From: Mytilus edulis
Lineage: Eukaryota
Length of the DNA: 64,000 nt
Direction of reading: 5' to 3'
Assembly (NCBI RefSeq): GCF_963676685.1
Contig: NC_092349.1
Span: forward strand, 13,206,001-13,270,000
The position numbers were made by a program, and so were the translations under genes. The notes under the pieces are model-generated. The model did no database searches. It worked only from the letters and a program-made list of their open reading frames with translations, and was not told the DNA's origin. Shown here one piece after another: positions 4,505-53,010 of the stretch (positions are counted from its first letter, which is position 1; every line of letters begins with the position of its first letter).

Positions 4505-4713
4505 CTGTAAATTCAGAAACTATTGCGATGCTGTTATTATTGCGAAAAACTGCGACAGGGTTATAATCGAAATAATTTAAACTCACATTTTAAAACTTTT
4601 GTTATATGATTTAAACAGGACTTTTCGAAATATCGCAAAAATTAAAATCGCATTTTAGTCTAAAATGACATAATCGCAATAGTAAATGCACACAATAATA
4701 TCTGAATTTACAG
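4505..4713. mobile_element. MITE (ctgtaaattcaga TIR family)
   Basis: ctgtaaattcagaaactattgcg ... cacaataatatctgaatttacag|ta, plus internal ttgcga/tcgcaa repeats. Confidence 0.7.
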
Positions 4714-5837: not shown

Positions 5838-6844
5838 TCATTTTAAAATATTTAAAAAGCCAAACAATTACAAAGTTGAAGAGCAATGTAGCGAGAGTTG
5901 GTATTATCCTGTTCTCAAGAGTCATAAACGGACAGAGTGATACGGGTATGGTATTTTCACACGAGAAATGGATCCCAGGCCACCACCATACGATAATTAG
6001 CTTTTACGTTTTCTAGCTCAGGAACAATTGATCAGCTATTCCTGAAGATATATTTGCCTTTTTTTTAAACATTGTTTGAAATGTTCTTTTTCTGAATTCC
6101 ACATTAAAAGCTAACATGTTCATTTTGGTAATAGCGACAGGTTTTCCCTGTTTTTATTCCGACATTGACTCTTACCATAAATTTTTATATATTACAGCAA
6201 GACTGAAAAGTTCTGAAACATACATTTGTTACGGAAACTTTGATTTTCAGGATGAGGACATTAATATGATATATTTGAGTAAATTGTAAAACTTTCAAAC
6301 TTACGTGGTATACATTTGTAACTATACCACAGTTGAATATTATTGCCGGATTTTGACCCTGACCTTGCTAAAAGCTCTTCCTCGTTTATACAATCGTCTT
6401 CATTAAAAAGATCACTGACTGTAAATTCACATGTTTGTTTTCCATTACATGCACCCTCAACTTTCGCTTAGGATTGTGGGTCGCTGAATTGATCTTTTTA
6501 GTTTTGCCACCTTTACGGTCTTTACCGCCTTTTTTCGGTTTGTGGTTTTTGCTGAACTACCATAGTTTGCGTTTTCCACACTGATTACCTCCCCTTCGTC
6601 GCAATTTATTGTCACTACATCATCATCGTCAAATACGTCATTCTCTGAAAATAATTATGATAATAAAGCTTGTCGTATTATTTTCTTTAAACAACAACGG
6701 TAATAAAACAACCCCAGGTAACTATTTGGTTTGCATTATATTATCTGTTATTCTAGCTACTTGATAAGCAGGTTTGTGTATACAATTGTTAAAATCAGAA
6801 AATTCAATGAAATCACATTTGTTATTTTTTGTGACTTTTGTAAT

Positions 6845-7640
6845 ATTGAGAACGGAAATGGGGAATGTGCCAACAGATAACAATCCGACTAAAATAAAAC
6901 CAGCCGAAGGCCACAAATGACTCTTCAACACAAGGAAAAAAAACCAAATCAGGAGGAGGGCACCAGCTGAATATTAAACAACCTATGTACTAGTTCAATG
7001 ACAATGGGTCCCGGACATTACACCAAACTCTAGAGCATATAGATGAACTAAAGGAGTAGGTTCAGTACATGTAAGACCCCTTTTTGGCCCCAGGTTTACT
7101 AAATTGTTAAAGTGTATACTTTTAGTTATTCATTGGACAGTGGAATTCTTCTGCTAAATAAACATGAGCTGTGTTTGACAATACAATGCACATATACATA
7201 TATCGGGTACTAGCATCATTAGTTCATGAAATCTTCACAATTTTAGCATTTTAGTTTAAAACGGTTTCCGTCTTAAATGAAAGTGGCCGCATTCGTGTTC
7301 ATTCGTAATATTGAAATGTAAGTTGTATTTTATGATAATACATAACATATATAAAGATTGAGGATGAACACGGATGCGGCCACATTAATTTTTGACAAAA
7401 ACCATCTGAAAAGTGACAATGTTTGGTATATTTGATAGATTTTTCATATTTAAGCTAGAATGGGGCGTTTTTAATGAGTAAATCAGTTAAAATCTTTTAC
7501 ATATACTTATTGAATGAACTACAATAGACACTTAAGTGTTTAAAAACCATCTAAAATCTTTCGTCAGATGAATTTGAAATTTGAGGCCGAAATCGACCAT
7601 TACTTTACTCCTTTAAAAACAAACAAGACTAACAAGGTTG
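6845..7640 (-). repeat. dispersed repeat (ttgagaatggaaatgggg family) split by a TTAA-type MITE
   Basis: Homologous to 15793-16114 and 29575-29693; homology resumes after the 7052-7612 insertion. Confidence 0.65.
7052..7612. mobile_element. Kolobok-like (TTAA-target) MITE
   Basis: ctaa|aggagta ... tactcct|ttaa. Internal inverted repeat gtggccgcattcgtgttca / tgaacacggatgcggccac. Confidence 0.65.
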
Positions 7641-7727: not shown

Positions 7728-8310
7728 AAATAAAGGCAAAAATAGTATACTGTTGTTCAAAACTCATAAATCGATAGAAAAATACAACAAATCCGGGTCA
7801 CAAACCAAGACCGAGGGAAACGCATTAAATATAAAACAATGACGACACAACATTAAAACGTAACACACACAGAAACGAAATAAGCATTAGACAAAATCCG
7901 ATGAAAATAACAAATATAACATCAAAACCAAATACATGAATTTGGGATAGAAAAGTACCGTGACACGTCTTATAATAATGTGAATTCACACTCAAATATA
8001 AGAGGAAACAAACGACACAAAAGAAACACAACGTTAAAATGTAACACACACAGAAACTAACTATAATATAACAATGACCAAATTCCTAACTTGGTACAGG
8101 ACATTTTTTAAAGAAAAAATGGTGGGTTGAACCTGGTTTTGTGGCGTGCCAAACCTCCCTCTTTTATGGCCATGTTAAATATAACATTAAAATGACAACA
8201 CAATATTATAGGACTACAATACACATAAATAGGAGAACACAATTGACAAAGAAACACACGAATAATAGCCAACAAAAAGCTCCAGGTTTAAAATTTAATA
8301 CACTAAAAGT
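7728..8310 (-). mobile_element. 5'-truncated Penelope-like element 3' UTR (contains twister-like motif 8073-8173)
   Basis: Collinear with the 3' UTRs at 33700-34250 and 47426-47990. Ends in the aacag..gtatac..ctgtt hairpin + gcctttattt. Confidence 0.8.
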
Positions 8311-12705: not shown

Positions 12706-13545
12706 CAAGGTATAGAAAATGTTAACGTAAATAATGGCAGATGCCTTGAAATGTTTTGAATGTATGATATCTTTGATCACTAACATTGTGCTTTATCTGC
12801 GTATTGGTTTTTTTAACTGTCATTTGTCTATTCGTCATTGTTCATTTTGTTGATAAAGTTGTCTAATAACATCGAGATAAAGTTTTTTTTATTGTCCTAT
12901 AGTATTTTCATAATGGAAAGAGAGAAGCACATTTACGGTCCTTGTACATCCTTGGCTGCCAAATATTCGGCTTTGAGCGTTTCTGGTGAAGGTAAATCCA
13001 TTGTCATCGTCAAATAATATTTCTGTAGAATAATTCTAAAGTTGCAATACATAGGAAACGCATAGTCATCAGTACCAAATACAACGGTCCAAACTCCAAA
13101 TAAAGATAAAGGGAAAAATACAGTTCATGGTACACGAAAATATCACACTTGAGCACATAGAACTCATGTAAACATCAGAAATAAAAAAAGGTGCTCAGGA
13201 TTATTGAGCAGTTCCTGTTCATGATATAACATCTATTGTGGAAATATGCATATGGTACAATTAATATCGTATCATTAATGCTAGTACATGGTTAGTCAGA
13301 AACCTGTTGTTCAGTGGTTTTCGTTTGTTAATGTGGTTCTCAAGTGTTTCTCGTTTCTTGTATAGATTAGACCGTTGGTTTTCCTGTTTGAATTGTTTTA
13401 CACGAGTCATTTTGGGGCCCTTTATAGCTTGCTGTTCGGTGTGAGCCAAGGCTCCGGGTTGAAGGCCGTACTTTGATCTACAATTGTTTACTTTTTACAC
13501 ATTTTGACTTAGATGGAGAGATGTCTCATTGGCACTCAAACCACA

Positions 13546-14786
13546 TTTTTAAGTCTCCCAAACAAAGTTTGGAGACTTATTGTTTTTGGTCAGTTCTTAT
13601 TATTTTTATTATTCTTCCTCTTCCTTTTCTTCTTTTTCCGCCACTTTAAAAATGAACTTGTCCGCAGCGGTTCTCCTAAACGGCTTGTTAGATTTACTTA
13701 GGATTTTACAATATGTTAGACTAACATGTCTAGGTGAGCCATCAATGTTTCGTTTGTGCATTGGGGTCTATTAAGGGATATTTTGGGGGGTAGAAAGGAG
13801 GAAGGGGTTTACTATAGAACCCTATGGGATTTTATTTTCTAAAATTTTCAAATGAATATAACTTAAAAACTGTAAGTGATAGATACATGCAGTCTTCAGA
13901 AATGATTATAGGACAATAAAACAATTCACATGAAATATAGGGGGAGTCCCTGGGGGGTCATCCCCACCCCTTTCAATTTGAGAATATGCTTTTATCTTGT
14001 AAACGGTCCAGATCCCCACCCCTAAACCATATATATTCTTGAATGGGACGATAAAACAAATCAAATGAAATTAAAGGGAAGTCCCCAGGGGTCATCCCCA
14101 CCCCGTTCAATTTGAGAATGTGCTATTATCTTGTAAACAGTCCAGATCCCCACCCCTAAACCATATATATTCTTGTAGGGGACAATAAAACAAATGAAAT
14201 GAAATAAAAGTGATGTCCCTAGGGGCTCACACCACCCCCTCTTGTTTGAAAACTTGTAAACGGGCAACATCCCCACCCCTAAAACATATATATTCTTGTA
14301 TGGGACAATAAAACTAATCAAATGAAATTAAATGGAAGTTCCTTGGGGTCATCCCCACCCCGTTCAATTTGAGAATGTACTATTATCTTGTAAACGGTCC
14401 AGATCCCCACCCCTAAACCATATATATTCTTGCAGGGGACAATAAAACAAATGAAATGAAATAAAAGGGAAGTCCTGAGGGGGTCACCCCACCCCCTCTT
14501 GTTTGAAAACTTGTAAACGGTCAACATCCCCACCCCTAAACCACATATATTCTTGTATGGGACAATAAAACAAATCAAATGAAATGTAGGTAAAGTCTCT
14601 GGGGGTTACCACCACCCCTCCTGTTTGAATACTTGTAAATGGTGGAGATCCCCACCCGTAAGCCATATATATTCTTGTATTGGACAAAAAATCAAATCAA
14701 ATGAACATGACACCATATAAATGGCGAGTTATGGGAGCTTTGTTTGGGAGACTTCGTAACAGCATCCTGTTACAATTACTTCTTGT
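13546..14786 (+). mobile_element. Helentron-associated interspersed element (HINE/DINE-1-like) with internal minisatellite
   Basis: 5' subTIR aagtctcccaaacaaag (13551) with adjacent IR tttggagactt, then a (att/ctt)n tract and a tandem array. 3' subTIR ctttgtttgggagactt (14738), then stem-loop gtaacag-catc-ctgttac (14756-14773). Inserted at a T-rich site of another repeat (ccacat|cttatt). Confidence 0.85.
13905..14710. repeat. minisatellite, alternating 134/123-bp units (257-bp higher-order repeat)
   Basis: Anchor atccccaccc(c/g)taa at 14012, 14146, 14269, 14403, 14526, 14648 (spacings 134, 123, 134, 123, 122). Confidence 0.95.
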
Positions 14787-15792: not shown

Positions 15793-16114
15793 AATTTGAG
15801 AATGAAATGGGGAATGTGTCAATGAACGAAAGAGACAACAACCCGTCCAAAGACCAGAAAACATCCGAAGGCCACCAATGAGTCTTCAACACAGCGAGAA
15901 AATCCCGCACCCGGCGGTGGGCTATAGCTGGCCCCTACACAAAAAAGTGTACTAGTTCAGTGAAAATTGACGTCAAACTAAAGTCCGAAACATAAAAATG
16001 AACTAAAATTAAAAAAACAAGCATACAAGACTAACAAAATCCAGAGAATCCTGACTTGGTACAGGCGAAAAAATGCGGCGGGATTAAACATGTTTTGTGA
16101 GATCTCAACCCTCC
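15793..16114 (-). repeat. dispersed repeat family copy carrying a twister-like fold at its 5' end (16041-16114)
   Basis: Homologous to 6845 and 29575. Minus strand reads GAGGG..tgagatctca..UAA-UCCC-GC..CCUG-U-ACC-AA-GU-CAGG. Confidence 0.7.
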
Positions 16115-17488: not shown

Positions 17489-20400
17489 ATCCAATAGAGA
17501 AAATGATTCAAATGATAATTAAAAAAAAAAACTATATTAAAGAATTTGTACCTTCAAAGGAATAATAACAAAGATATATAATGTTGTAGATTATCTATTA
17601 TTTCTTCCTTTTTTATATATCATACTCACTTCTTTACAATAGCGTATTTGCTATCTTCTTAAATAATTTTTGATATATTTTTTTTATTAAATTGATAGGT
17701 GGAAACGACACGTGATTTCTGTAAAATAATGGAGGATTTACGTCACAGGCTAAGTGTACTCTTACAATATTTTCCTCTGAAAGTTTCGACTAAAATAAAT
17801 TATTCCTTGTTATCTCTAGTTTTGACACGACAATAACACGGACAACGTTGCTTTTTTTAACAGACTTTACATACTTCTTTTTTTCGCAAGAGTTTTTTCA
17901 ATATCACAGAGTCATACAGTACGTATCATTAACCAAACAAGCACTCATAAATAAGTTGTATTTGTTTGATGACATAAATCGTGTACCTTCATACTAATTT
18001 TAAGTGTTTTTAGATTTAATAATGCGCGATTCTGCAGACCAGTCAACCTAACGTGTTTATTACGATTGATATACAAACTTAAACTTAATTATGTCTTGCC
18101 ACTACTTTCACTTGACTTTGATCAAACTTATTTTAAAATCTTGTGAACATTCAGGATATGTTTTCTATTAATGCCAATTTAGGTTTTATCGTGTGTGACT
18201 GTCTCCGTTTGAAACACCAACCCTGTCGTTATGTTATTCATATAACAAAATCAAATTTAATCGGGTAATTAAAGACCATCAATTCCATAGTACATTTTAT
18301 CAAAAGAAATTTAAATATCCAATTCAGTGTGACATAATATTAAAAGAATATTTTCGCAATTAATCTTATGACGACGATAGACGATAAATGACAACGTTCG
18401 CCAAGTAATGAAAAAGCTCACACTAGTCCTTTAAAATAAATGCTCTAACAGTTCGGTAAATGTACAATATTCGAAGAATAGTGACTGATGCCAACGACAC
18501 GAATACCTCAATACGAAAAAATAGGCAAAACATATGGGTTTCTTTATATTTATAAATGATATGTCTTTTCTTTTGTAAATTTTGAAAGAACCTAAGATCA
18601 TCCCTGTTTTGTCCGTTTCTCTTCGACTCACGAGTTTTGAATATCATTTGAAAATTTTTGCCAGGTTTTATTCGGTACAAATTTTGTGTTATGTTTATTT
18701 GTTTAAATCTTTATATTCATGATATCATTTCGATATAACATCGACATGAGCAAAACTTGGATCAACCGTATATTGAAAGTTATCCCTTTTTAACAGTATA
18801 TCTCTTGAAATTGAATCGAATAGCTTAAGCGAAACAAGTTGTGGTGCCTCAAAAGTTATCACAAAAATAAGAAGAAAGATACATTTTACCACCAGTTGCA
18901 CGTGTTTCAAAGGAGAAGATAGTAAAAAGTTATTAGATTACTATCATGACAATAATGGGTCAAAATTCATAAATGAGTCCTGCCAAAGTATTTAACAAAA
19001 TAATACCACGTGCTTGTCTAAACTATTTGTGATATTCAGTTATTACAGTGTAACTGTCGGTTCTCTTAGGACAGTATTGGTTGGATTTCTTTCTGCCTTT
19101 GGTGATTTTTTTCATGTTGCATTTGGTACACTGATTTACTGTTATTTTTTTTCTTATCATTTATATAATACTACTTTTCTTATAAGTGTACTAATCTAAA
19201 AAATCAACACCACAGTTAATTAGACAATTATAATCATTTTTAATGGCTATGATATAAAAAATAAGGCGTTTTAGTATGATTCTGAATACACAATTATTCA
19301 CAAGAGACAACAGGACCTCGACGTAAGCAACCAATGGTCACCGTACGGCTTCATAAAATACTCAAACTGTACAGTTAGCTATAAAATACTCGGTATGGCG
19401 AATGTGTGAATCTATTCAAACTACAAAACCAACAGTCAGATTTATGATCAATCAATAAACAAAAATGTACTGTGGTAGACAGCAACAAAAGGCAACCACT
19501 AAATAGCAGTCTCCAGACTTTGTACAGGCATATCATTAATGGGGTATGGTTAGTCGTCTTCTTACTCTTTGACAGTGGTGGAACAGCAAAACATTAAAAT
19601 AACTGTTAAATTCCGTTCAAAAGAAAAGACTTGACTTTTTATAGGCACGAAGAACACAAAAATTATAAACAAAAAGACAATAGACACACAGTACCGGTTT
19701 AAAAGTACTCGTAGTAACTGCAAGCTAGTCAAAGGCAATTGAAATATCAAACAGTACACCTCCAACCTATTTTATGAAAATACATCATAAACATTCTGAG
19801 AAAAGCACGACCTTGTGGAATGCCTTGATACTAGAATCTGCAGGATGTAGCACCAAAAGTATTAAAAACTGTATATCAATAAATATGAGGTAATTCAGAG
19901 CAGCTATATTTGATTTAAAAAAAAATCACCCCTTTCATTTGTCCCCAGTAAACAAAAAGTAAAATCACAAAAATACAGAACTCCAAAGAAAATTCAAAAC
20001 GAAACTATCATATCAAATGGCAAAATCAAAAGCTCAAACACATCAAACAAATGAAAAACGTATTAAACAATGTTCTTGTGGGAATATAGAAATTATTTTT
20101 CTTGTATATCTCCCTTTTCGTACGTCTGTTTGTATGTATGTCTATCTAAGCATTTGCCCCCTTAAAGAGTAGTAAATCAAATTTGTGTGGAGTTCATGTT
20201 TTTGTGAGTTCAGACTTACTTGTATTTTATTTTACTGTTCCAGTTTCATTTCTTATAATCAAATTTATGAAAAGTGGTAATTGCAGTAAATGGCAACTAC
20301 CTAAACCGAAAACAAAAAAGATTAGCATTCCACAATATCTGCAAATCTTTTCTTGCTTGTGGATAGTTGCAAAATTATGATGTGGTAAATTAAACGATGA

Positions 20401-21991: not shown

Positions 21992-24900
21992 AATAAAGGC
22001 AATAGTAGTATACCGCTGTTCAATAGTCATAAATCGATTTAACTGAAACAAATCCGGGTCACAAACCAAAACCGAGGGGAAACACGTCAACTATAAGAGG
22101 AAACAAAACGGAACAACATAAACACTGAACTGTTACAAAAACAAACGCCAACACACATAAACATGGATTATGTGATAACAGTTGCCATATTCCTGAATTG
22201 GTAAAGAACATTTTAAGAAAAACCTCCCGCTTGTAGCAATGTTAAAAATACCGCTAAAATGACAACATTACGTGACAGGAACAAAGTACAAAAAAATGCA
22301 AGAACATTCAGGACAGAAAATACATAAATAAATAATATAATAGTCCATGTCAACATGTAAACCACAGAATAACAACGAACACCAAAAACATCCGTATTGG
22401 GCAATATAAAGGCTGGAGTACCCCAGGGGTCGATCCTGGGTCCTCATTTATTTTTGATATTTATCAATGATATCATATCTGATAAACAGTCCACTATTAA
22501 GTTGTTTGCTGATGATACAAGTTTATATTTGATAGTAAATAACCCCCGAGAATCAGTAAACAACTTGAATAGTGATCTCGCAAAAATCCATAGATGGTCT
22601 TCAGATTGGCTAGTGACCTTTAACCCTTTTAAAACCGAGAGCATGACTTTTTCACGGAAACTTCACAAACCTGATCATCCAAAACTTAACATGGACAACG
22701 TAACTGTAACTGAGGTATCAACCCATAAACACCTTGGATTACATATTTCAAACGATGGCACTTGGCATAAACATATTGATGAAATAAACTAAAAGGCATA
22801 CAAACGACTGAATGTTCTACGAAAATTTAGATTCATCCTTGACAGACGAACACTCGAGACAATATACCTAACACATATAAGACCATTTTTAGAATATGCT
22901 GATGTCATCTGGGACAACAACACACATCTTTTGTTTGATAAGATTGAAAAAGTACAAACAGAGGCTGCCAGGATCGTAACTGGGGGTACTAGGTTGGTGT
23001 CCCTAGAGAGATTATATCTCGAAACGGATTGGGAAAAGCTTAAAGATCGAAGGGAGGCCCACAGATTAATGTATTTTTATAAGATGAAAAATAGTATTAC
23101 TCCGGAATATTTATCAACCTTAGTTCCAAAATCCCATGCAACCATACATAATCATAATACGAGAAACTCGTCCCTAATCCCCCTGTTCGAACTAGAACAG
23201 CCCTGTATTCGAATTATTATTAACCGGCAACTGTACGTTCATGGAATCTCCTCCCTGAGAGTGATAAGACCAGTACTTCGGTGGGGGCATTCAGGAATTG
23301 TGCCCAGTCTCGAGTGACAAAACCTCCAAATTATTTTTACATTGGTAAGCGATTAGGTCAAATTTATCACTCAAGACTTCGAATGCAATGCAGTTCTCTA
23401 ATTCAACATATTTTTGTAAAAAAATATAGTGGCCTCACTACTTTGTTTATGTGGTGCTATAGAAACAACAGCGCATTACTTGTTGCACTGCCCCCGATTT
23501 CACATCATGCGTGAACAGCATATTTATAATATCAATATCATACATTTCTTGTCGGAAGAAAATTTGCTACATGGTTCAACGGATTTCAGCTACGAACAAA
23601 ACATTGAAATATTCTTTGCAGTTCAAACGGTCATACTCAGTAGCAAAAGATTTGTCATATGATAACAAACATCTTGTTCAACAAGAAATACTTATATCTT
23701 AAATAATTGTGTCCGTTCAGAAACATACACTTTATTATTGTATTTCCGATGTATATTTTGTTTTCTCTTTTGTGTTCACAACCTTATTGTATGTTTTGTT
23801 TATTTTCCATCTAGTGTAACATTGTTATTTTTTTAACATTATACTCCTTGAGTATTACAATATGAAATGTTCTTATTTGAATCAGGAAACGGATTAATAT
23901 AAGCTTACAGCTTGTTTCTGGATCCTATTAATTATTCACTTGAATTGATATGTAAATGACAATTTGTGTACATTACTTAACCTGAATTTAATTAATAAAA
24001 TATGTTTACACTAACACCAAAATTAATTTACGACAGAACACAAATACAGCACAATAAAATAATGAAATGTGCGTCACACGATTGTAGCAACGCCACAAAA
24101 AGTGACGTCATAGGTAATTTTTTGAAAATACCATATGAAATTGGGATTAAGTTTGTAATGGTGTTATTTGATATACTTTCTAACCATTACAAGCATATTA
24201 ATATAGAATTGTGTAAGTAATTGTGTAAATATTTGTATTTTATAACCATGGGTTATCTTCTAAATCAAACTGAAAACAACCCGAATGAATCCTGTGCATA
24301 TAGTTGCTTTTAATCTAAAATCATATCAATGAACTAAAAAGAATTAAAACAACAAACGATAAGACATAAAACAACATTCCACCAGAATTACAAATGTAAC
24401 ATCATAACTAAATAAATGAATGTTGGATGTACAAATACCGAGACACGTCTAATATTAATGCAAATTTATACTCAGCAAAACAGTCATATTCGGGAATAGG
24501 TCACGTTCGATACTTAGAAGACCAGACGACGTAGATGGTAAACCACAATATAAGACGTATTGAAAATGTCGTTAGCTAGTTTAAACACAGTCACACCGTA
24601 AATATCAACCATTTCGTGATAGTGTCCATAAATACGGAGTGTAATTTTTAATCTTTCCTCCTCATAACTCTGTTGGAGCAGTTTCTGCGTAAGGAGCACA
24701 CTCCTGTAAATGAATGCGTATAGTGTAAACATGCACGCGCATAGCGTATCAACTGAGATATGTAAACACCATACGATGGAGCAGAGGGTATGTTACTGCT
24801 GAGAAATGGAAAAATGATAATTGTGAAGTTGAAATCGTCCTTTTGTCATAAATTTTAGTGTGAAGTAGTTCATATGTGTAAATATTGAGTAAAAGATCAA

Positions 24901-25186: not shown

Positions 25187-27426
25187 AAAAAGAAGGTATA
25201 GATCTCATCATTTGAAACATATTTGTTCCGTAAAAGTGTCTCTATTTATAACGATTTTTAAAATAAAACACAAGCCGTATAGTTAATCAAAAAGTGCTCG
25301 GTATAGCGAATTGTGTGAAACTATTCAAATTACAAAACCAACAGTCAGATTTAATATAAATCAATAAACAAAAATCAACTTTGGTAGACAGCAACCAAAG
25401 ACAACCACTAAGCAGCAGTTTCCAGACTTTGTACAGGCATATTATTAATGTGGTAGGATGAATCGTATTCTTACACTTGGACAGTGGTGAAACAGCAAAT
25501 CATTAAAATAAATGTTGAAATCTGTTCAAAAGAAGACTTGAGTTTTTTATAGGCACGAAGAACACAAACTAATCAACAAAGAGACAATTGACACACAGTA
25601 CCTTTTTGAAAGCTTGTATAAAGCAATAGAAATATCAAACAGTACACCTCCAACCTATTTTATGAAATAGTCTGCGAAAAGCCCGACATTATGGAATGTC
25701 TTAATACTAGCATCTGGAGGATGTAGCACCAAAAGAATTCAAAAATATATATCAATGCATATGACGTAATTCAGAGCAGATAAGTTTGATTTTGAATAAT
25801 TCATCCCTTTTTGTGCCCCGTAAATTAAATTCTTAAGGGAAAATAGAAATTATTTTTTCTCGTGTATCCCTCTGTTCGTACGTATGTTTGTATGTCTGTC
25901 TATCTAAGCATTTGACTTGTCGACAAAGAACCGTCTATCTAAGCATTTGCCTTGTCGACAAAGAACCCCTGCAAGAGGAGTAAATCAAATTTGCGTGGAG
26001 TCCATGTTTTGTGAGGTCACACTCAGTTATAGTTTATTTTACTGTTCCAGTTTCATCTCTTATAATCAAATGTTATGAGTTGTAGTAAATGGCAACCACC
26101 TAAATCGAAAACAGAAAATATTAGCCTTCAACAATATCTGCAAATCTTGCTTTATGATGTGGTTAATTAAACGATGACATTTTGCACTTAACATTAGTCA
26201 AGGAAAGGCCGTGTGTCAATTATACTGAACGTAAACATTACTATAACGTTTTTGAATGGATAAAAAAAAACATAAATACAGTGAAATATGTTGCATTCTT
26301 ATAATTTAATGGTTTAAAATAAAGCATGAATTTCCCCGCAGAAAAATCCAAGCTTAAAATAAGTGTGATTTCATCATGAAAATATGAAATGGAAATCACA
26401 CTGTCAAAAATATATTAAAATAGCATGTTTTATCATTTAAATGCGTTATTTACAGGATGAATTCAAACAGATTTGCTGTTGATGATTATTTGTTCTGATC
26501 TTCACAACTTAACATGAATTGTTCCTTCTTTTAAATCACAAGTTCTTTACCGAAAATGGGTATTGTTAAGAAAGTGAGCTTTATTTATTAAACCTAACTT
26601 TAACCTACGGATTCGGTATCTTTATAGGAAAAAAGTGAAATAGAAAATAAAAGAACACCAGTAATTGCAGTAGTCCGAAGAACAGATCTGAATTTTCATC
26701 AGGAAAGCTTAAACTCAAACGTTGACCAGTCAAAGATGTATCAGACGTAATCATGTTAGTACCTACATTGTATATGACCGAAAGGTACCTAAGAATTATC
26801 CAAGTTCATATAAGGTAAACTTAACCTAAAGGAATTGAAACTTTAATTTCGAAATGTATGAAAAGTTCATAATAATACTGAGTACTTATCGTTGACTAAA
26901 ACGTTGAAAAAAATCACGCGTAAATATTTTGTATATGCATGATAAAATAAATCGCTTAACACTACTTTCACTTGACTTTTACACCGTAGTCTGTTTGTTT
27001 GTATTTGTTTTTCTTGTGGTCATAGTATAACAATAATGAAATCTATTTTCGTCTAGATAAATTATCTTTGTAGTCTCTAATTTGATAATAGTGAAAGGTG
27101 AATATATTTCACATAGACATCGTTAACTAATCATTTTTCAATGTCTTTTATATTTTGTTGTTTTTACTTTAGACAACTATAAGAAATAGTTTTCTTATGA
27201 ACGATATAGAAAATTTTAAAATCGTTAGTCCTAGACAAAACCACCGTCGAAAACAAAGATAGATACATAAGAGTACATGGTACACTAAATAGAAACCGTA
27301 AGATTGAGTAATGGAAACTCATGACAAAACTGTATTCAGAAAAGGCACCAGTTGAAGTATCTTATATATACAATTGACGATTTCAGTATGTAATAGTGAC
27401 AAATTCCGTATGTATGGTTGGTTTTA

Positions 27427-27868: not shown

Positions 27869-28234
27869 TATGTTTTCTATTTATTGTGAAAATAGACCTC
27901 ACAGCTATTTTCATTGTTATACATTTTAAAATTTTGTAAACTAACAAACATTTAAGATATAATATTTGAATTAATCTGTGATGGTTCTTTTTTAATTAGA
28001 ATTTGTCTTTAATTGCATACATATCAGGTCGGTAATACTGATTTTATTTTATTTACAGACACGAAAAGAACTTCAAACAAAAGAGGCAAAAGATGATTTC
28101 AGTCAACTTATAGACGCGTATTATTGTATTTGCAGATACTTATTTTATAAAGAATGTCGACTGAAATAACATTTCCTGTTAACATTTTTTTATAGTAAAT
28201 AAACTCATCATAGATATCAGGATTATAATTTTGT

Positions 28235-28278
28235 ACGCAAGACGCGCGTTTCGTCTACAAAAGACTCATCATTGATGC
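28235..28278 (-). ncRNA. type I hammerhead motif (C3->A) in a retrozyme-like copy (28195-28440, resuming 29545-29730)
   Basis: Minus strand reads gcatca ATGATGA gtct-tttgt-agac GAA acgcgcgt C ttgcgt. Confidence 0.7.
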
Positions 28279-28440: not shown

Positions 28441-29550
28441 ATGCTATTAATAAGTATTAAAATGTGCATTGTTATTAAATGCAATATCAGTATTTAGTTC
28501 AAATATAATCTTAAATAGATCCTAATTCTATCTTATTCATTCAAATGTGACGCCATTTTTCATTTTTTAATGATCTGTTTTACAAATTCAAATGACGTCA
28601 TTTTTTGGTCTTTTTTACAATTTCAAATATGACGTCACTTGGCGTTGAGGTTTAAACTTATTCGGATGTGTCTACATTTTGTGTTGCAAATGCCTGGTTA
28701 TGTAATGTATTTCAGTTGTTTCCTGTAATTAGTTAATACTTCAGTTTCATCATGTACATCTTTTGTATAGTAATTTTATAAATTTACTGTTTGCAAAAGT
28801 ATAAATTATTCTAATTAATAGGGATGCTCTGGTAACTTAACAGAAAAGACTGGCCGTTTTTGGCACAACTTTTTTTTTATCTTTTGGTCCTCGATGCTGT
28901 TCGACTTCGTTCTTGTTTCGGCTTTCAAAGTTTTGTATCTGGGCGTCACTATTAGATCGTGTGTGGACAAAATACACTTCTGGCGTATTAAAATTTTGAA
29001 CTTGTTGCCTTTTGTTAGCTGTTGTTCGTGTGTTTTTTTGTTAATTGTGTTCTCCAATTTATTTTTATTGTAGTCTTGTGGTGTTGAGTTGTCATTTTAA
29101 TGTTATATTTCACATGGCTATAAAAGGGGAGGTTTGGCATGCCACAAAACCAGGTTCAACACACCATTTTTTCCTTTAAAAATGTCTTGTACCAAGTCAG
29201 GAATATGGCCATTGTTATATTATAGTTCGTTTCTGTGTGTGTTACAATTTATCGTTGCGTCGTTTGTTTTCTCTTATTTTTTAGTGTAAATTGACATTGC
29301 GATAAGGCGTGTCACGGTACTTGTCTATCTCAAATTCATGTATTTGGTTTTGATGTTATATTTATTATTCTCGTGGGATTTTGTCTGATGCTTGGTCCGT
29401 TTCTGTGTGTGTTACACTGTAGTGTTGTGTCGTTGTTCTCCTCTTATATTTAATGCGTTTCCCTCAGTTTTAGTTTGTTACCCCGATTTAGTTTTTTGTC
29501 CATGGATTTATGAATTTGAACAGCGGTATACAACTGTTGCCTTTATTTAT
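28441..29550 (+). mobile_element. 5'-truncated Penelope-like 3' UTR copy nested in a retrozyme-like repeat
   Basis: Near-identical to 33191-34250. Contains dead hammerhead 28943-28986 and twister-like motif 29114-29212. Confidence 0.85.
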
Positions 29551-32500
29551 AATTATGACCACATCAATGATAATAAAATTGAGAATGTAAATGTGGAATG
29601 TGTCAAAGAGACAACAACCCGACCAAAGAGCAGAAAACAGCCAAATGCCACCTATGGGTCTTCAACACAGCGAGAAAATCTCGCACCCGGAGGCATGTCA
29701 ACACAGAAGTACTAACTACTGGGCTGGTGAAAAATAGATTTAGTTAATATACGATTTTGTAAATATTGTTTTCATAAACACATTTTCGTATTGCTATTAG
29801 TTACTGCATATAATGCATTTCGAACAGAACAAACATATTGAATATATAAGTTTTTTCTTATGCGTATTAAAGTTCTTGCTGACTAAATCGGCAATCTTTT
29901 AAGTTCAAATGTTCCCATGTTTAAAAACTTTCTTCTCAACTCTTTGCTTACGCTTCAAATAGTGTTCACGTATCATACTTTAAACAAAAGCAGTCAAGTA
30001 ACTGAAATTGTAGTTGATGAAATTTTTCGGACTTTTGAAATTACTCCTCAGAATGGAAGTAGTTGTTTATTTTAATTGATTCAAATTGATTTCTATTCAA
30101 TGTATATTGGTTTTAATCAAGCATTATCTTTACTGCTTTGAAATATGAATTCACATGGATCGTGTTAATAAAATTACTTTTGCTCTTCAATTAGACAATA
30201 ACGTTAATATCTTAATGAGGTCGACTGAACTGTCATTGTTGTGCGATGATAATTGAGAATAAATATCGATGCAGAGACGGTAAACAGATAATAGGGGATT
30301 CATTTAACTTTTTGCGTATTTTGGTCATTTGATAACAATAAAAAATCATTTCGATCAAAAAAGATTGGAACACTCTCTGCCGATCCTCCTCAGAAAATCT
30401 GTTTCGCTTCAATCCGTATTTATCCTATTTCCGATTGTGTCTTTTTAACATAAATAGCAGAAGACGTATGCCCTGTCCACGCACACCTGGTCAGATTCTG
30501 TTTATAGTTCTTGCGATTTCTGTTGTTTTTATTTGTTATCTTGAAATGTACCTTTCTTATCTATTTTATCGATTTACGAGACTTGAACAGCGGTAAAATA
30601 CTGTGGTCTTAAATCAACTGTGAACTTTTTCAAAATATACCTACATGTTTAGTTCAATCAATCAATTCAGTGTTAAATTCTAACATATTTACAGTATGTT
30701 TACTTTAATGTATAAAGTATCTATAGAAGCATTTGTTAATTTGCTGACATCAACTTATTATTATTGCATAATTGATAAAAAAAAAACACCTCCCATATCA
30801 GTTTTATATATTAAAGTAAATGTCGCTGATTGGTTTAATACATTCATGACTATGTTAAGAAATAAAATCACCATGGCGGTGATTTGTTTCTTTTTCTTTT
30901 GCAGGCTATATAATGAAAACATGTCTTTAAATTGTCAGTCAGTACTAGCTGTCGACTACAACAGTACATCTTTCCAACCATGAAGTTGCAGGTTCTGTGC
31001 GTACTTGTTTTTATCTATGGCGTAAGTTGTATGAGCAGTAATGTTTTCAGAAAGTATTTGGGTAAGTTTTATCAATCAATTTAAATATTTGCATTGAAAT
31101 TTATTTTAAACCTGGTATCTTGTATGACTTTAAAAAAAACCAATCTACATGTAGCACCATAACTGATCTTATCAAAAAGGTAATTATAAAAATAAGAAGA
31201 TGTAGTATGACTGCCAATGAGACAACTATAAAGAACACACCTAATTACGTAAATGTAAGCAACTATATGTCTCCGTACTGCCTTCAACATTGAGCAATGC
31301 CCATACCATATAGTAAGCTATAAAAAGCAACAAAATTACAAAATGTCTCTGCTCAATTTATTCTGAAACATAAGCGTTATATTCAATTTAAAAAAAAGTT
31401 ATAATATTTTAGATCTTTTCCCTAAATACCATGAAAAGGTGTGCATTTGTCATGTTAATTTTGATTCACTTAACCTATTATGCAGATCATATGTGAATAT
31501 AATAAATATGCATAATGCAACGTTTTGGCAATACTGATTTGTAACTTTATTAATATTAAGCTTATTTTTAGGTCTGTTCTTTTCTTAAATTTTATAGTTA
31601 TTTCACTCTATATCCCTAGGGTTGATCTTTTCACTTTGTCTCATTTGTCTTCCTCGACCGTGCCTCGAATTTTGAGGTTTAACGGCAAACCGTACAGATG
31701 TTTGGCTTATCGTAAAATACAGTAATCACAGTTTCAACATTGGTCCCGATTAAGCTAACACTAATCTATATGGATTTTCAAAATTTTTTCTTCCTTTGAA
31801 TGTTAACGGACTTTCCGTGTGGAATTTTCCTTGGAGTTCGGTATTTTTGTTGTTTTACTTTTTTCATCAATTGTTGACCGAGGCGTTCCGATGTCATCTT
31901 ATATACTCAAGTTATTTCGTTTATTTTAAATTTTACATATTAAGTGATATATTAGTGTTTGTCATTAAACGTAAGTGAGTTTGGTTTTAAATCATTGGTC
32001 CATTTAGAAGGAAAATTGTAGTCAATTTCAAGAAACCAAATCAATTTCTGTACTCACTCCATAATTTCGCTGTTAAATTTTAAAAGAACATTGAAATCTT
32101 CTGTAGCAACATACGACACATCCAAGGACGATGGTTTTAAAGTTTCCAAGAATCGGCGTCAATATTTAAAGTCATATCGAATGGCTGAGATATGCTATAA
32201 AACAAGTCTTTATAAATGTACTGGCATTGAAATATTTTCTACCCGTACTCTAATTCCCCGATTGTTTCCCGTATGCAGTTACCTTCACAGCGAGACCTCT
32301 CGTTAGAACATCGACCGCCGCACATCGCAAGTGGGAGGAAAAAACCGCTATAAAAGAATGTAAACAAACGTGCACTGGAAGGTAAATAGTAGTAACTTTT
32401 TTTAAATGAAAAATTAAGTACACCAATCATTTAACGGCTCTTTAAGTTAAATTAATAAATTGGAACGCTGGAAAATGTCAGCACAGTATCATGGCTCTCT

Positions 32501-32709: not shown

Positions 32710-34250
32710 CTTTAATATACAGGAGTGTGCTCCTTACGCAGAAACTGCTCCAACAAAGTTATGAGGAGGACAGATTAAAATTGACACTCCGTAAATTTTA
32801 TGGACACCATCACGAATTGGTGGATCCATACGATGTGTCTTTGACCAAACTAGCTAAGGACATTTTTACCACATGGTAGATTGTGGTTTGTCATTATGTC
32901 GTCTAATCTTTTAATTATTACTATAAGACGTGTTACGGTACTTGTCTATCCCAAATTCATGTATTTAGTTTAAATGTTTAATGTTATATTTGTAATTCTC
33001 ATCGGATTTTGTCAAATGTGTTGACGTCTTTTCTAATATATTTATGTGTTATGGTAAAGAAAATTAATCACCGCATTCATTTATTAGATTTGATTTTGTT
33101 CAACGTAATCAGTACGATATTTTACGTTTGAAGTTAGATTCAAAACAAACCGGACATAGCTTTATAATATAGTTAATTGCTACCTTAGTTTGCTATTAAT
33201 AAGTATTAAAATGTGCATTGTTATTAAATGTAATATCAGTATTTAGTTCAAATATAATCTTAAATCAATCCTAATTCTATCTTATTCATTCAAATGTGAC
33301 GTCATTTTTTTGTCATTTTTTACAATTTTAAATATGACGTCACTTGGCGATGAGCTTTAAACTTATTCGGATGTGTCTACATTTTTTGTTGCAAATGTCT
33401 GGTTATGTAAGATTTCAGTTGTTCACTGTAATTAGTTGATACTTCAGTTTTATCATGTACATCTTTTGTATAATACTTTTATAAATTTACTGTTTGCAAA
33501 AGTATAAATTATTCTAAATAATAGAGATGTTCTGGTTACTAACAGAAAACCCAGGCCGTTTTTGGCACAACTTTTTTGATCTTTTGGTCCTCGATGCTGT
33601 TCGACTTTGTGCTTGTTTCGGCTTTCAAACTTTTGTATCTGGGCGTCACTAGTAGATCTTGTGTGGACAAAATGCACTTCTGGCGTATTAAAATTTTTAA
33701 CTTGTTGCCTTTTGTTGGCTGTTGTTCGTATGTTTCTTTGTCAATTGTGTTCTCCAATTTATTTATACTGTAGTCCTGTGGTGTTGAGTTGTCATTTTAA
33801 TGTTATATTTCACATGGCTATAAAAGAGGGAGGTTTGGCATGCCACAAAACCAGGTTAAACCCACCATTTTTTCCTTTAAAAATGTCCTGTACCAAGTCA
33901 GGAATATGGCTATTGTTATATTATAGTTCGTTTCTGTGTGTGTTACATTTTAACGTTGCGTCATTTGTTTTCTCTTATTTTTCAGTGTAAATTCACATTG
34001 CGATAAGACGTGTGACGGTACTTGTCTAACCCAAATTCATGTATTTGGTTTTGATGTTATATTTGTTATTCTCGTGGGATTTTGTCTGATGTTTGGTCCG
34101 TTTCTGTGTGTGTTGCATTGTAGTGTTGTGTCGTTGTTCTCCTCTTATATTCAATGCGTTTCCCTCAGTTTTTGTTTGTTATCCCGATTTTGTTTTTTGT
34201 CCATGGTTTTATGAGTTTGAACAGCGGTATACTACTGTTGCCTTTATTTA
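32710..34250 (+). mobile_element. Penelope-like (Naiad-type) element: last ~53 codons of RT ORF (stop 32879) + ~1.37-kb 3' UTR
   Basis: YRSVLLTQKLLQQSYEEDRLKLTLRKFYGHHHELVDPYDVSLTKLAKDIFTTW*. No C-terminal GIY-YIG after the RT thumb. Terminal hairpin aacagcggtatactactgtt. Confidence 0.85.
33814..33913 (+). ncRNA. twister-ribozyme-like motif, type-P5 permutation (candidate)
   Basis: P5 atggctata/tatggctat; P2' G(A)GG + GA + GGT; AA-CCC-AC; P3 cattttt/aaaaatg; P4 cctg/cagg with loop T-ACC-AA-GT. Pseudoknot complements GGT:ACC and AC:GT are present. Confidence 0.6.
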
Positions 34251-42663: not shown

Positions 42664-44936
42664 CTTTGGAAACCAAACACTGAAGACGACCTTGATAGTA
42701 TTGTTATGCGATAAGTCCAACATGTAAGATAAAAATGTACAATGTTGTGTGATACATGTGTTAATGTGGGTCTGTGTTGAGATCATAATTCAGGCATAAA
42801 CAAGCAAACTCCTCATTGAATGAAAATGACATAAACCCTACACCATATGAGATCAGGTAAATTGGCAGCTTAAGCATCTCCTGATTCCATCGCCATACGA
42901 TTTCTAAACAATATAAAATACAAAGTGTCAAATCTATGAAATGACTTAACTATATACAAATACATAAATGCATTAACTAGCTTTAAAACCAGGTTTAATC
43001 CACCATTTTCTACATAAGAAATTGTCTGTACCAAGTCAATTACATGACAGTAGTTTTCCATTCGTTTGATGTGTTTGAGCTTTTAATTTTGCCATTTGAT
43101 AAGGGTCTTTCCGTTAAGAATTTTCCTTGGAGCTCGGTATTTTTGTTATTTTACTTTTCAATGGGTGATAGAACATTCTTAACATTTGAATTATTTTTTA
43201 TTTGACATTTGTTCTGGTAAACCATATTGAATCTAGGGAGTGTGAATCATAAATGATGGTCTTTGAGCTGATTATTAAGCTCAAACAAAAAACGTACTTT
43301 TTTATATGCTGTAGATACCATTCTCCCTCTTTGGCGCAAAATTACGTCGCAAAGTTTTCTGAATGCATCATTGGCGTTCAGCTTTTACCGTCTTTACTGT
43401 CATAAATTAGTAAACGAATCATTCTTCATTTGCCTCGAATTTTAAAGAGCATGTTCGTGTTTCTTTACAATGCTTTTAAATTTACGCCACCAATTTGATA
43501 ACTTCGGAGAATTTTCCATATGAACCAAGGACCGGATTAACATACAGAACATGTCCTACTTTTAAAAAATATTGTCATACTAAATCAAACATGCTAAAGG
43601 GGACCTATGTAATAAACACTTTAAAATGTTTGTGTGGTCGAAGCGCCTGTTCTGGTTGTACCTACATCGGGAACATTTGAACGTTGAGATGCGTAAATAC
43701 GCTGCAACGTTAGGTGCTATATTATCCTAAAAAACCTAAACGGAAGAAGCAAATTCATGTAATATCAACTTTGCATATTACAACATAAGGTATCTACCAC
43801 CAACACCTTTTGTTTTTATCCCAACATTCTCCTTTATAATTTCGATCGGTAGAATTACAACAGATTTACAACACATAAAATAACTTCCAACATATTTTTT
43901 TTACATTCAATTTATTATTGGATTGGTTGGGGCCGGAAGTTGTCATAATTACAGCTAAATGACATATTAAATGGACATTTTCAGTTTTTTCCCTCGGCAT
44001 AGATTTCCATCTTAAACCCTTCTATTTCATAGTTTTTAAGTAAGTTTTTGCTCAACTTTAAATTCCATATCCAATTAAAAATGGAGTAATATAGGGGGAA
44101 TAGACATTACAGTTCACAAGCATCGGCTTTCCTGTCTGTACCAGCCATTGTATACCAATTTTACTTTCACCCATGACATAATTTTCCTTTTCAACTCAAC
44201 AGTCATAGCAAATCACCGAAATCAGAAATATTAACATTATGTGCTATGTAAAAATGAACTTTTTCGAACTTTAAAAGAAGTTACTTGCTTGAATTCTTTG
44301 ATATGTATAATGTAAAATCTTCAAAACTCTTAAACACTCTGTTGATTGGAGGTCTTTAATCTATTTAGATTTTTCCTGCTTATATGACGATATAATTTAT
44401 TACACTAAAGCTTAAATTTACGATAACCCCTAATAATTTTACTTCATCATTGCACATATCATGTGTGTTTTGTAATGGTTTTTTTTTAAATAGAAATATG
44501 GCTGTCGGTTAGGTATGGCAGTACTTCGTTTTAGCCTAGTTGTTTATTAAAGAATATACAATTTTCAGAAACAAAAGTTTCCCTATTTCTTAAATATTTA
44601 CGGGAAATATTGGAATGGACATGCTATAAGGCTTACTATACCACATACAGGTTTATTACAGGTTTTTCTTTTTCTTTTCAGATTCCATTGTTTATAACAC
44701 CATTACAAGACATTCCCTGAAAATCCAAGCTGTAATATATAACTTGTCTTAATTCTCCCTGGATAACTTCTGTAGTTGAATCTGTTACTTTGGTAGCATC
44801 TATATGTCAAAGAAGATTTTGTATTATCGTTAATGTTATATTATGAGCGGTCTGCTTTGTTCAATCATCCATTCGTGCAATTGCAGTTACTTGATTCGCA
44901 CCTCCTATTTTTTAAACATGTTAAACGAGTACGTCT

Positions 44937-47425: not shown

Positions 47426-49653
47426 ATAAAGGCAACAGTAGTATACCGCTGTTCAAACTCATAAATCCATGGACAAAAAACAAAATCGGGGTAACAAACT
47501 AAAACTGAGGGAAACACATAAATATAAGAGGAGAACAACGACACAACACTACAATGTAACTAACACACACAGAAACGGACCAAGTATCAGACAAAATCCC
47601 ACGAAAATAACAAATATAACATCAAAACCAAATACAAGAATTTAGGATAGACATGTACCGTGACACGTCTTATCGCAATGCCAATTTACACTCAAAAATA
47701 AGAGAAAACAAACGACGCAACGTTAAATTGTAACACACACAGAAACGAACTATAATATAACAATGGCAATATTCCTGACTTGGTACAGGACATTTTTAAA
47801 GGAAAAAATGGTGGGTTGAACCTGGTTTTGTGGCATGCCAAACCTCACACTTTAATGGCAATGTTAAATATAACATTGAAATGACAACATAATATTACAG
47901 GACCACAATACAAATAAATAGGAGAACGTATTAGACAAAAAAACACATGATTAATGAATAACACAATTTTCAGGTTTAAAATTCTATACGCCAAAAACGC
48001 GCCTTGTCCAAACAAGACTCACCAGTGACGCCCAGATATAAAAGATCGAAAGCGAAAAAAGTACAAACTTGTACAGCACTGAAGATCAAAAGTTGAAAAA
48101 GGTTGAATACATTTGACAAAATCCGATAAGAATTACAAATATAACATTAAACATTTAAACTAAATACATGAATTTGGGATAGACAAGTACCGTAACACGT
48201 CTTATAGTAATGTGAATTCACACTCAGTAAAACAGTCACAATCGGGAATAAGTCACGTTTGGTAATTAAAAGATTAGACGACATAATGACAAACCACAAT
48301 CTACCATGTGGTAAAAATGTCCTTATCTAGTTTGGTTAAAGACACATCGTATGGATCCACCAATTCGTGATGGTGTCAATTTTAATCTGTCCTCCTCAAA
48401 ACTTTGTTGGAGAAGTTTCTGCGTAAGGAGCACACTCCTGTATATGAAGTCCGTATAGTGTGAACAAGCACGTGAATAACGTATCAATTGTGATATGTAA
48501 ACACCATACGAAGGGGCAGATGGTATGTTACTGCTGAGAAATGGGAAATTGATAATTGGGAAGTTGAAATCGTCCCGTTTATCATAGATTTTCGTGTGAA
48601 GTCGTCCATCTACGTCAATATTGAGGAAAAGATCAAGGTATGAAGCAGTCCTTCTAGTATCAGTAGTATCCTTAATTTCAAGTTCACTGGGATATATGAG
48701 ATGTAAGTATTGGCTGAAGTATGGGTTATTCAATGATAGAACATCATCAATATATCGGAAAGTAAAATTAAAGAATTTCGCAAGGTGCTTTTTCTTTTTG
48801 TCTTTTAGAAGGTTCTGAATGAATTCTGCTTCATACAAGTACAAAAACAAATCAGCCAGCAGGGTGCACAATTAGTACCCATTGGAATACCGATTGTCTG
48901 TTGAAATATAAATCCTCCAAACTCAACAAATATACTGTCGATCAAAAAGTCCAGCATTTTGATAATATCATCTTCAGTATATTTTCTGGAAGATTCAGTG
49001 TGATTCTTCACAAAATATGAATTATTGTAACCCAAAACAAGAAATTGTATCTACGATTCCCATTTTTAAAGAAAAAGCTCTGTTTTATGAGATGGTGAAG
49101 TCGATCTTTCAACTGAGCATGGGGAATAGTAGTATATAGCGTAGAAAAATCAAAAGTTTTTATGTTGCTGCAAAATTGCAAAGATTGTGATCGAAGGTTA
49201 AGCAGTGAGATCTTTGGAATTTTTGAGAATCCACATCTGGTTAACACCACTGGTAGAGTATATCTCCTCACAATATTTTTGAAGCCCATCTTTAACTGTA
49301 GAAAGAATAGTAGTCAGTACTTTAGAAAGATGTTTAGTCGGACATTTTGAAGAACCAGCTATGTATCGTTCTTTATATGGAGTTTTGTGTAATTTAGGTA
49401 TCCAGTATAATGAGGGCAAGTTTTCTTCGTTTTCTTTGATGTTGATACCAAAAGAAAGAAGGACAGATTTATGATTTTTTAAATTTCGTCTTTGGTAAAT
49501 GATGTTAAAGAATATGTAGGATTACCAGTAGTTTTATCAATTCCAAGCTCTGTAGTGAGACATTGCAAATAATGTTTTTTTACATATGAAGACAATATTA
49601 TTGGAGGCTTTATCTGCTGGAACAACGACATATTTGTCATGCAAAGAGGATAG
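47426..49653 (-). mobile_element. Penelope-like (Naiad-type) retroelement, 5'-truncated, frameshifted RT (49653-48301) + 3' UTR
   Basis: VVPADKASNN, LYWIPKLHK, RYIAGS, FDFSTLYTTIPH, GIPMGTNC, FRYIDD and YGVYISQLIRY motifs across several frames. UTR holds dead hammerhead 47988-48031 and twister-like motif 47762-47861. Confidence 0.92.
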
Positions 49654-50900: not shown

Positions 50901-51468
50901 AATAAAGGCAACAGTAGTATACCGCTGTTCAAACTCATAAATCTATGGACAAAAAACAAAATCGGGGTAACAAACTAAAACTGAGGGAAACGCATAAATA
51001 TAAGAGGAGAACAACGACACAACACTACAATGTAACTAACACACACAGAAACAGACCAAGCATCAGACAAAATCCCACGAGAATAACAAATATAACATCA
51101 AAACCAAATACATGAATTTGGGATAGACAAGCACCGTGACACGTCTTATCGCAATGTCAATTTACACTCAAATATAAGAGAAAACAAACGACGCAACGTT
51201 AAATTGTAACACAAACTGGTGGGTTGAACCTGGTTTTGTGGCATGCCAAACCTCGCACTTTAATGGAAATGTTAAATATAACATAGAAATGACAACATAA
51301 TATTACAGGACTACAATACAATAAATAGGAAAACGTATTAGACAAAGAAACACATGATTAATGAATAACAAAAAGCATCAGGTTTAAAATTTAATACGCC
51401 AAAAACGCGCCATTCCACACAAGACTCACCCATGACGCCCAGATATAAAAGATCGAAAGCGAAAGAGT
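50901..51468 (-). mobile_element. Penelope-like 3' UTR copy with an internal deletion
   Basis: Near-identical to 47426-48060; lacks the P3/P4 half of the twister-like motif. Confidence 0.85.
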
Positions 51469-51919: not shown

Positions 51920-53010
51920 GTGTGCATATGAAGGCAAACTAATTCAGAACCTCCTCAAAGACATAAACAAAAACATCTTATCATGGTAATAAATTTCACT
52001 TTCAGATACGTGGATGACATGTCACTCCATATTCCACATATCAGTTAGTGTACATATTATATATACCAGTTAACGTGAGATTAAGGATACTACTGTAACT
52101 AAAAGAGAGCCGTGGTGTAGTGGTTAGTGCATCGATCTACTAACACGAAGGTTCCTGGTTCGATTCCCGTCTGGGATGAAAATTTCAGGAACTGAATTTT
52201 CGGCTCTCCCTTGACACCATTTACGAGTATGGTCTCGAGGAAACGATGATAGTCCGTCGGAAGGGGACGATAAATGGCTGACCCGTGTTAAGAGAGAGCC
52301 ATATCTCTTGCACGTTAAAGACACCCTTGTAGATTTCGAAAAAGAGCAGGCTAATGCCGCTACAAGGCAGCACTCGCACCCGCAAAGTGGAAAGGAATTA
52401 ATATAAGTTGCAAAACTTGTTTCCCAATCCACTATAATTAAATATGTTTAAACTAAAAGGTCTGCTTCATATGTCCCTCTTGCCCTCGATATTGACAAAT
52501 ATAACTGACTTTAATACATATCTGTATTTACACGTGACGCTCTTTAAAGTCCACACTGTATGGAACAGAACGACTTAAATCGAAACAACATAAGTTTTAC
52601 GGTCACCACTACAAACTGGTTGACCAATACGATATGCATGTTTCTTAACGCAAAAGCGTCATGTTTCTGCTGTCTTAAAGCTAAAGATACAAAAAAGTAG
52701 TTTCATCTGTAATGTAAATGATTGTTTCCATAAAGCGCGGAGGTTTAGCTAGCCACACAACCAGGTTCAACCCACCATTTTTTCTTAAAATGTCCTGTAC
52801 CAAGTCAGGAATATGGCAGTTGTTATCTAATAGTTCGTTTCTATGAATGTTGCTTTGTTGTTTGTTTTTTGTTGCACTTGTGTGTTCTATTATTTCGTTG
52901 TTTTCCTCTTATAGTAGATGTGTCTCCCTAGTTTTTAGCTTGTAACCCGTATTTGTTTTCTCTCAATCGATTTATGACTTTTGAACAGCGGTATACTACT
53001 GTTGTCTTTC
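51920..53010 (+). mobile_element. degenerate Penelope-like RT fragment (host of the SINE) followed by a UTR fragment with twister-like motif 52725-52820
   Basis: Remnants of IQNLLKD, NFTFRYVDD and EIKDTT..K|SASY, split exactly by the SINE. Confidence 0.7.
52106..52450 (+). mobile_element. tRNA-derived SINE, central region resembling the Deu/Nin conserved domain
   Basis: Box A tggtgtagtgg (52113) and box B ggttcgattcc (52157). Body tcggaaggggacgataaa...cgttaaagacaccc...ttcgaaaaagagcagg resembles the Deu/Nin domain as recalled. TSD aactaaaag at 52097-52105 and 52451-52459. Confidence 0.88.

Follow-up and report, generated by a model that had tools for sequence, protein, structure and literature searches.

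What is the repeat fragment that bears a twister-like fold on the minus strand of this Mytilus edulis locus, and why does the same fold recur in other repeats nearby? The window, which is the whole stretch of DNA that we analysed (64,000 nucleotides; contig NC_092349.1, positions 13,206,001 to 13,270,000), had been described in a first-pass annotation as carrying a ribozyme module in canonical twister register that several abundant, otherwise unrelated repeat families have in common.

A decayed copy of an abundant retroelement

Every letter of the motif quoted in that annotation was found at 16114-16041 (minus strand; Table 1). A DNA search of the mussel's own genome (1.37 Gb) with window 16114-15793, in which the best 40 of 6401 candidates were scored, returned relatives with 81-85% identity when the self match was excluded, and the insertion was ~16% diverged from its family, which we call family A. 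The copy had been thought to be truncated at its 5' end, and relatives in the genome indeed match from ~16114 onward. A further 5' extension was ruled out, as the 26 nt 5' of 16114 are non-family sequence (78% of 3000 random window segments score equally well against family A).

In the 29 best relatives of the window copy, loop L4 read CCC in 21 (one further relative was mis-registered by the script) and ACC in none, GAGGG was present in 19 of these relatives, which had not been selected for it, and the 5' and 3' strands of P5 were recovered in 22 and 15, respectively. The CCC in L4, the G-run upstream (GGGG-GA-GGG) and the closing P5 stem that had been predicted for the family are all found in it. 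Because the relatives have CCC, GAGGG and P5, the window copy stands alone in its ACC/GGG mismatch, broken P3 pair and lost P5. The copy itself is probably inactive ('dead'). Related repeats had also been pointed out at 6845 and 29575; both proved to belong to the same family, as pieces that cover less of its 3' end.

Table 1. Features in the window discussed in the text (positions are those of the window)
Feature	Position	Strand	Remark
Insertion with module	15793..16114	-	5'-truncated 3' end of Naiad family A
G, last base of truncated P2' strand	16114	-	
Conserved GA	16113-16112	-	G16113 predicted general base, by analogy with twisters as described in parts of PMC5408937 and PMC11662667
GGG strand of 3-bp pseudoknot T1	16111-16109	-	
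Palindrome 1	16098..16107	-	10 nt, perfect, in the position of P1
Palindrome 2	16086..16095	-	10 nt, perfect, last base is N-1
U16086|A16085-A16084	16084..16086	-	Cut predicted by analogy between 16086 and 16085
A16085	16085	-	Predicted general acid, by analogy
P2 strand UCCC	16083-16080	-	CCCC in family A
GC of 2-bp pseudoknot T2	16079-16078	-	
P3 hairpin	16066..16077	-	One broken pair in window copy
P4/L4	16050..16065	-	CCUG 16065-16062, U, ACC 16060-16058, AA, GU, CAGG 16053-16050
P5 3' strand	16040..16049	-	Decayed; 5' partner lost through truncation
Family A 3'-end fragment without module	6841..7052	-	
Family A 3'-end fragment without module	29570..29693	-	
Family B module	33809..33918	+	GGU/ACC pseudoknot, 3-bp P2 with bulge
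Family B module	29109..29217	+	Covariance model
Family B module	47758..47867	-	Downstream of same-strand Naiad RT
Broken family B Naiad RT	48383..49653	-	DKA motif
Family B module	8069..8178	-	Covariance model
Family B module	51149..51275	-	Interrupted after P2; covariance model
Module of further family F	52719..52825	+	Covariance model
Decayed module, family E type	42953..43056	+	Covariance model
Decayed module, F type	22176..22245	-	Internal deletion; covariance model
Decayed module, family C type	25406..25521	-	Covariance model, E 5e-7 (rough)
Decayed module, family C type	19497..19615	-	Covariance model, E 0.006 (rough)

Longer family A copies run 5' into a reverse transcriptase (RT) reading frame. 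The element was read from eight near-identical young copies. In a full-length copy at locus L052, reading TGA as U gave an open reading frame of ~1000 aa, in whose translation an N-terminal GIY-YIG-like motif is followed by CxC, DKA and RT motifs, with no C-terminal endonuclease; a Pfam search of the family A frames gave no relevant match. At the same locus a long open frame beside the element (L052:1-2290) resembles what we take to be an LTR-retrotransposon pol. The N-terminal GIY-YIG, CxC, DKA and the lack of a C-terminal endonuclease are Naiad diagnostics in the account of PMC8557442, and family A is almost certainly a Naiad Penelope-like retroelement.

Four in-frame TGA codons, in cysteine-like contexts, are the sole interruptions of the L052 frame (L052:2552-5563), and a SECIS-like stem after the stop codon (L051:5620-5684) scored 30.9 bits with the model SECIS_1 (E 0.00045), below the cut-off of 35. 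The element is a predicted selenoprotein. Selenoprotein Naiads are published for clams and spiders, and mussel Naiads are not listed among them in the portions of PMC8557442 consulted. The clam elements Naiad_Scon and Naiad_Mmer, as given there, resemble family A in the N-terminal endonuclease, CxC, DKA, UGA codons in matching motif contexts, a SECIS-like stem past the stop and the presence of the module in their consensi.

The module lies in the sense strand, ~360 nt past the stop codon and ~280 nt ahead of a fixed 3' end, which was found 276-279 nt beyond the predicted cut in 28 of 30 copies; the 5' ends are variable. At five places (L328, L119/L120, L018, L167 and L256) the 3' end is directly joined to a 5' UTR, with a unit length of ~3.97 kb in L328 (Naiad range 3.4-4.4 kb), and inverted and tandem pieces were seen in L328 and L353. 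An inverted pair of 3'-end pieces stands ahead of the full-length copy at L328:3687-4208, with the cut site kept and the GA-GGG strand absent.

A twister-type fold with palindromes in the place of P1

We read by eye eight bivalve Naiad 3' ends from the supplement of PMC8557442. In five of the eight, Mgal, Bpla, Mphi, Scon and Mmer, the module occurs close to the 3' end on the sense strand, unannotated in the parts of the source consulted. The cut-site AA, the GA, and the U and AA of L4 are unchanged in all five, as is GAGG, and new complementary P2, P3, P4 and P5 stems occur among them. T2 is CC/GG in the clam consensi Scon and Mmer, compensatory versions of P4 occur in Mphi, Scon and Mmer, and in these same three the outer T1 pair is U.U. 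Naiad_Mcor ends ahead of the equivalent position. String searches of the remaining 46 of 54 Naiad consensi in that supplement gave no further module; line breaks and divergence can hide matches in such a search. Naiad_Pmar and the preceding record (by file order Tgra) have no module; the two share a GC-rich 3' UTR motif that starts with a palindrome and may be a different ribozyme.

Our own alignment consisted of 14 hand-picked natural copies, one per apparent family plus the window copy. The structure paired 86.6% of its cells, with both-sided change in 15 of 26 pairs, and the covariation score was 0.399 versus 0.060-0.105 for slid controls, the shuffle control being one that ignores relatedness. 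P4 is invariant in this alignment because the search pattern fixed it. Since they were not selected by our patterns, the published consensi are stronger evidence for the fold than the alignment. Among the 14 copies T2 is GC/GU or AC/GU and 100% paired. P5, in which the RNA ends lie, changes on both sides in seven of eight pairs, with 70% of its cells paired. P2 has 4 bp in A, C, Scon and Mmer, and B, E and H have 3 bp with a bulge; by a view cited in PMC5408937, the active site may be disturbed when P2 changes in length.

The outer pair of T1 is Watson-Crick in 198 of 211 parsed copies (102 G-C, 96 U-A; copies failing the strict parse were left out), a covariation that may represent a single event between two clades, and it is mismatched in family G as well as in the window copy and the three consensi with U.U. 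In family G (L114, L127, L128), GGG stands opposite ACC in several copies, so that this family has spread with a G.A mismatch. NAA at the cut, with U or C at N-1, is kept in unselected relatives and in all five published consensi, and in the 34 nt before the cut 67 of 90 family A copies have one of two strings that are one linker base apart. The predicted monomer fold can sequester the T1 strand.

A search of the genome with the module pattern gave 27,797 matches (some places counted twice) and none for the reversed control, and the exact family A core gave 7,580 matches versus 0 in its control, showing that the module is not a chance match. With the canonical GC in T2 the pattern matched only 147 times; the 100 listed matches contained no new family and apparent point variants of A and C. 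Judged from these sequence comparisons, the module is very probably a twister fold maintained by selection.

The claim of a canonical twister register held for the core elements and failed for P1: fold prediction gave no stem adjoining the cut, the segment from the T1 strand to N-1 having no pairing with the bases that precede the cut. The Rfam twister models had no match in the window or in 20 loci, and none at E<=10 on an intact copy; a genome scan with RF02684 was blank, and so was its control. Because it lacks P1 and goes undetected by the Rfam twister models, we regard the module as twister-like and not as a member of the class. It resembles type P5 twisters (RF02684), as described in PMC5408937, in the strand order with ends in P5, the U/C-A-A at the cut, the GA before a 3-bp pseudoknot, the P2, optional P3 and 2-bp pseudoknot, and a P4 with G-C and a U/A extension; its core letters are nearly the same in family A as in the Schistosoma twisters of Table 1 in PMC8501958. 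Unlike type P5, it has two palindromes instead of a P1 next to the cut, a T2 G-U wobble in A, and the 3-bp, bulged P2 of the B type.

The 21-23 nt from the T1 strand to N-1 are made up of these two self-complementary segments. Palindrome 1 has a family-specific sequence, 10-12 nt long in the published Mphi, Scon and Mmer consensi, that is palindromic through its centre in all families; 97% of its cells are paired and four of five pairs change on both sides. A hairpin loop would have no need of such a self-complementary centre. It includes G-U wobbles, and because these are tolerated palindrome 1 would act in RNA; a role of the palindromes at the DNA level is disfavoured by the same wobbles. 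Palindrome 2 has 8-10 nt and is even or has a single unpaired base at its centre. Folded on its own, the segment reaches only 0 to -1.1 kcal/mol, compared with -15.6 to -19.2 kcal/mol for the self-duplex of palindrome 1 in families A, B, C and E. The signal is weak for palindrome 2 and for the palindromes of metagenome family H, with shuffle p 0.06-0.24. By analogy with Penelope hammerheads, which according to PMC4209133 have palindromic helix III loops and function as dimers, the palindromes in place of P1 suggest pairing between two modules.

The likeness extends to the location of the minimal pLTR type I hammerheads of Penelope-like elements, which lie in terminal repeats, have a palindrome that replaces a weak helix, and are proposed in the same source to cleave as dimers and yield a circular template. 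The Naiad module differs in belonging to another ribozyme class, in having two palindromes (8-12 nt) where the hammerheads have a palindromic loop of 2-4 nt, and in occurring in Naiads, which are reported to lack canonical hammerheads. A retroelement-linked twister with a relaxed P1 is also described in PMC8501958 for the Perere-3 T-variants of Schistosoma mansoni; there it is P1-type, sits at the 5' end of an RTE element, and insertions start at the cut. The Naiad module, by contrast, is P5-type, sits in the 3' UTR of a Penelope-like element, and insertions cross the cut.

Related Naiad families carry the module

That one twister-type module is common to several abundant repeat families was supported; that these are otherwise unrelated was not, as the main ones lie downstream of Naiad RTs. 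In A, B, C and metagenome family H, an RT resembling that of Naiads precedes the module on the same strand (in a few loci for C and H), and the A and B RTs share 36-51% identity over matched stretches and both contain DKA. The published Naiad_Mgal has a 3' end that matches family E, which points to a mussel host, and the tails of A and C are 63% identical over 462 nt. No reliable RT link was seen for families E, F, G and I in the loci examined. Because homologous RTs lie upstream and E matches Naiad_Mgal, we consider the families to be related Naiads with diverged UTRs.

The first-pass annotation's view of one module shared by otherwise unrelated families would mean a ribozyme cassette that moved between them. 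It had described the flanking repeat as not alignable to the 32710-34250 UTR, and the A tail aligns with 33022-34250 only over ~125 nt around the module (64%). This pattern would fit a cassette, as would the different 3' motif of the Naiads Pmar and (by file order) Tgra, which shows that modules vary among Naiads. Against movement stand the same-strand RTs of A, B, C and H, the match of E to Naiad_Mgal, and the co-occurrence of the 4-bp P2 with UGA-containing elements (A, Scon, Mmer), and we hold a mobile cassette to be very improbable. As far as the sequences can tell, shared descent would account for the sharing of the module better than movement between unrelated repeats.

More decayed versions had been proposed in a third family near 19500, 25420 and 36550. 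Those near 19500 and 25420 were detected with the covariance model, have 63-69% identity to family C copies, and are local duplicates of each other. The one at 36550 was not confirmed: there was no covariance-model match at E<=5, and only its downstream tail aligns, weakly and in low-complexity sequence (66%, E 1e-7). Two weak covariance-model matches (E ~0.01) were seen at 13494-13588 and 4535-4635 on the plus strand, and 13250-13800, which matches other loci at 76-88%, may contain another decayed family.

Elsewhere in the window, the minus strand at 28233-28278 has a type I hammerhead-like motif in a separate abundant repeat (21.6 bits, cut-off 34), which recurs at L003:1885-1928 and 2242-2285 (minus strand) with 33 bits and has related copies at ~5766, 38083 and 47960. 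Long near-perfect inverted repeats at 54583-54661 and 7257-7407 scored weakly against microRNA models. Open frames at 55912-56604 and 58363-59115 (minus strand) resemble exons of a two-pore potassium channel gene, and broken frames at 22373-23317 (plus strand) resemble what we take to be a non-LTR (CR1/L2-like) RT.

Predicted cleavage and the role of the palindromes

P1 is dispensable for twister cleavage according to PMC5408937, which gives near wild-type rates for P1-less twisters, and PMC11662667, by which insertions 5' of the cut are also tolerated. On these grounds, as the two texts present them, the core of the module is predicted to be competent. By analogy with known twisters, the module probably self-cleaves, and, if it does, would be fairly likely to depend on a dimer.

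Footprints of a cut were sought in insertions and in reads. Among 100 consecutive family A cores on contig C1, the predicted cut was the 5' end of the insertion in one and was crossed by the other 99, without enrichment. In RNA-seq run X24 (~6% read), both strands were represented and read ends did not pile up at the predicted cut; a small joint supported by 5 reads (back 34 nt) lay elsewhere. The result from X24 is a weak null because libraries rarely keep such ends and the reads likely come mostly from passenger copies. The only copy seen flanked by pLTRs, in L328, has an upstream module without the GA-GGG strand.

The silence of insertions and reads would be expected if the fold, though derived from twister, had lost cleavage and persisted as a structural signal, such as a binding site for the element's RT. 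The absent P1, the mismatched outer T1 pair in several families and the silence of Rfam fit such a signal as well. It would leave unexplained, however, why elements from mussel-like to clam share both pseudoknots, the U and AA of L4, the second A and the catalytic A and G, within a surrounding UTR that can no longer be aligned. We consider a purely structural role quite improbable.

A second alternative retains cleavage and drops the dimer. The module would then be a natural P1-less mini-twister that cuts as a monomer, and the palindromes would serve otherwise, for instance in dimerising the template RNA for the tandem and inverted insertions that characterise such elements and are seen in L328 and L353. 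The rates of P1-less twisters and the tolerance of insertions 5' of the cut, as given in the two texts cited above, agree with this, and palindrome 1 might fold into a short hairpin that stacks on T1. Constitutive cutting, however, would sever the open reading frame from the 3' end, which all insertions retain, and nearly all insertions cross the site; the palindromes, moreover, sit exactly at the position of P1. Monomeric cleavage thus appears unlikely.

We lean towards reading the stretch at 15793-16114 as a decayed Naiad 3' end whose intact counterparts are predicted to self-cleave, likely with palindrome-aided pairing of two copies. The twister-type (P5-permuted) fold in the 3' UTR of intact copies would cut at U|AA, and in a tandem transcript the palindromes that replace P1 would bring two modules together by pairing. 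If a partial tandem were read through, cuts at both modules would release a unit RNA of ~4 kb that may be re-ligated into a circle. Because 99 of the 100 insertions cross the cut site, the template of the RT would be re-ligated (circular) or uncut RNA. A circular template is also what hammerheads are proposed to supply in other Penelope-like elements; in the accounts of PMC4209133 and PMC6765202 they would cut tandem precursors into circles that template insertions of more than unit length. The module may be a common processing signal of its families, as had been suggested, although neither insertions nor reads showed a footprint of cleavage. In its strictest form, in which a P1-less, P5-permuted twister cleaves only as a domain-swapped, palindrome-held dimer, only in tandem transcripts, and thereby yields a circular template, the model is tentative and we would sooner doubt it than adopt it.

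Full-text searches of open-access papers, most of them judged by title and the opening of the abstract, found no association of twisters with Naiads. No ribozyme is reported for clam Naiads in the main text of PMC8557442, where the word 'twister' is absent; it is likewise absent from the accessible portions of PMC4209133 and bioRxiv 10.64898/2026.07.22.740005. Bivalve twister candidates are listed in the supplement of PMC11662667, whose text, in the part consulted, assigns them to type P1; they may bear on novelty.

Naiads dominate bivalve genomes, and their module is a natural P1-less twister-type fold missed by Rfam. In PMC8557442, the report that Naiads are without canonical hammerheads led to the view that Penelope-like elements may not need ribozymes, or may host them as parasites. 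If our reading is true, a conserved twister-type fold in the same place and with the same palindrome logic would argue that self-cleavage is required and that the class of ribozyme is interchangeable. If cleavage were confined to dimers, a twister numbering tens of thousands of copies would have converged on the dimer switch that Penelope hammerheads use.
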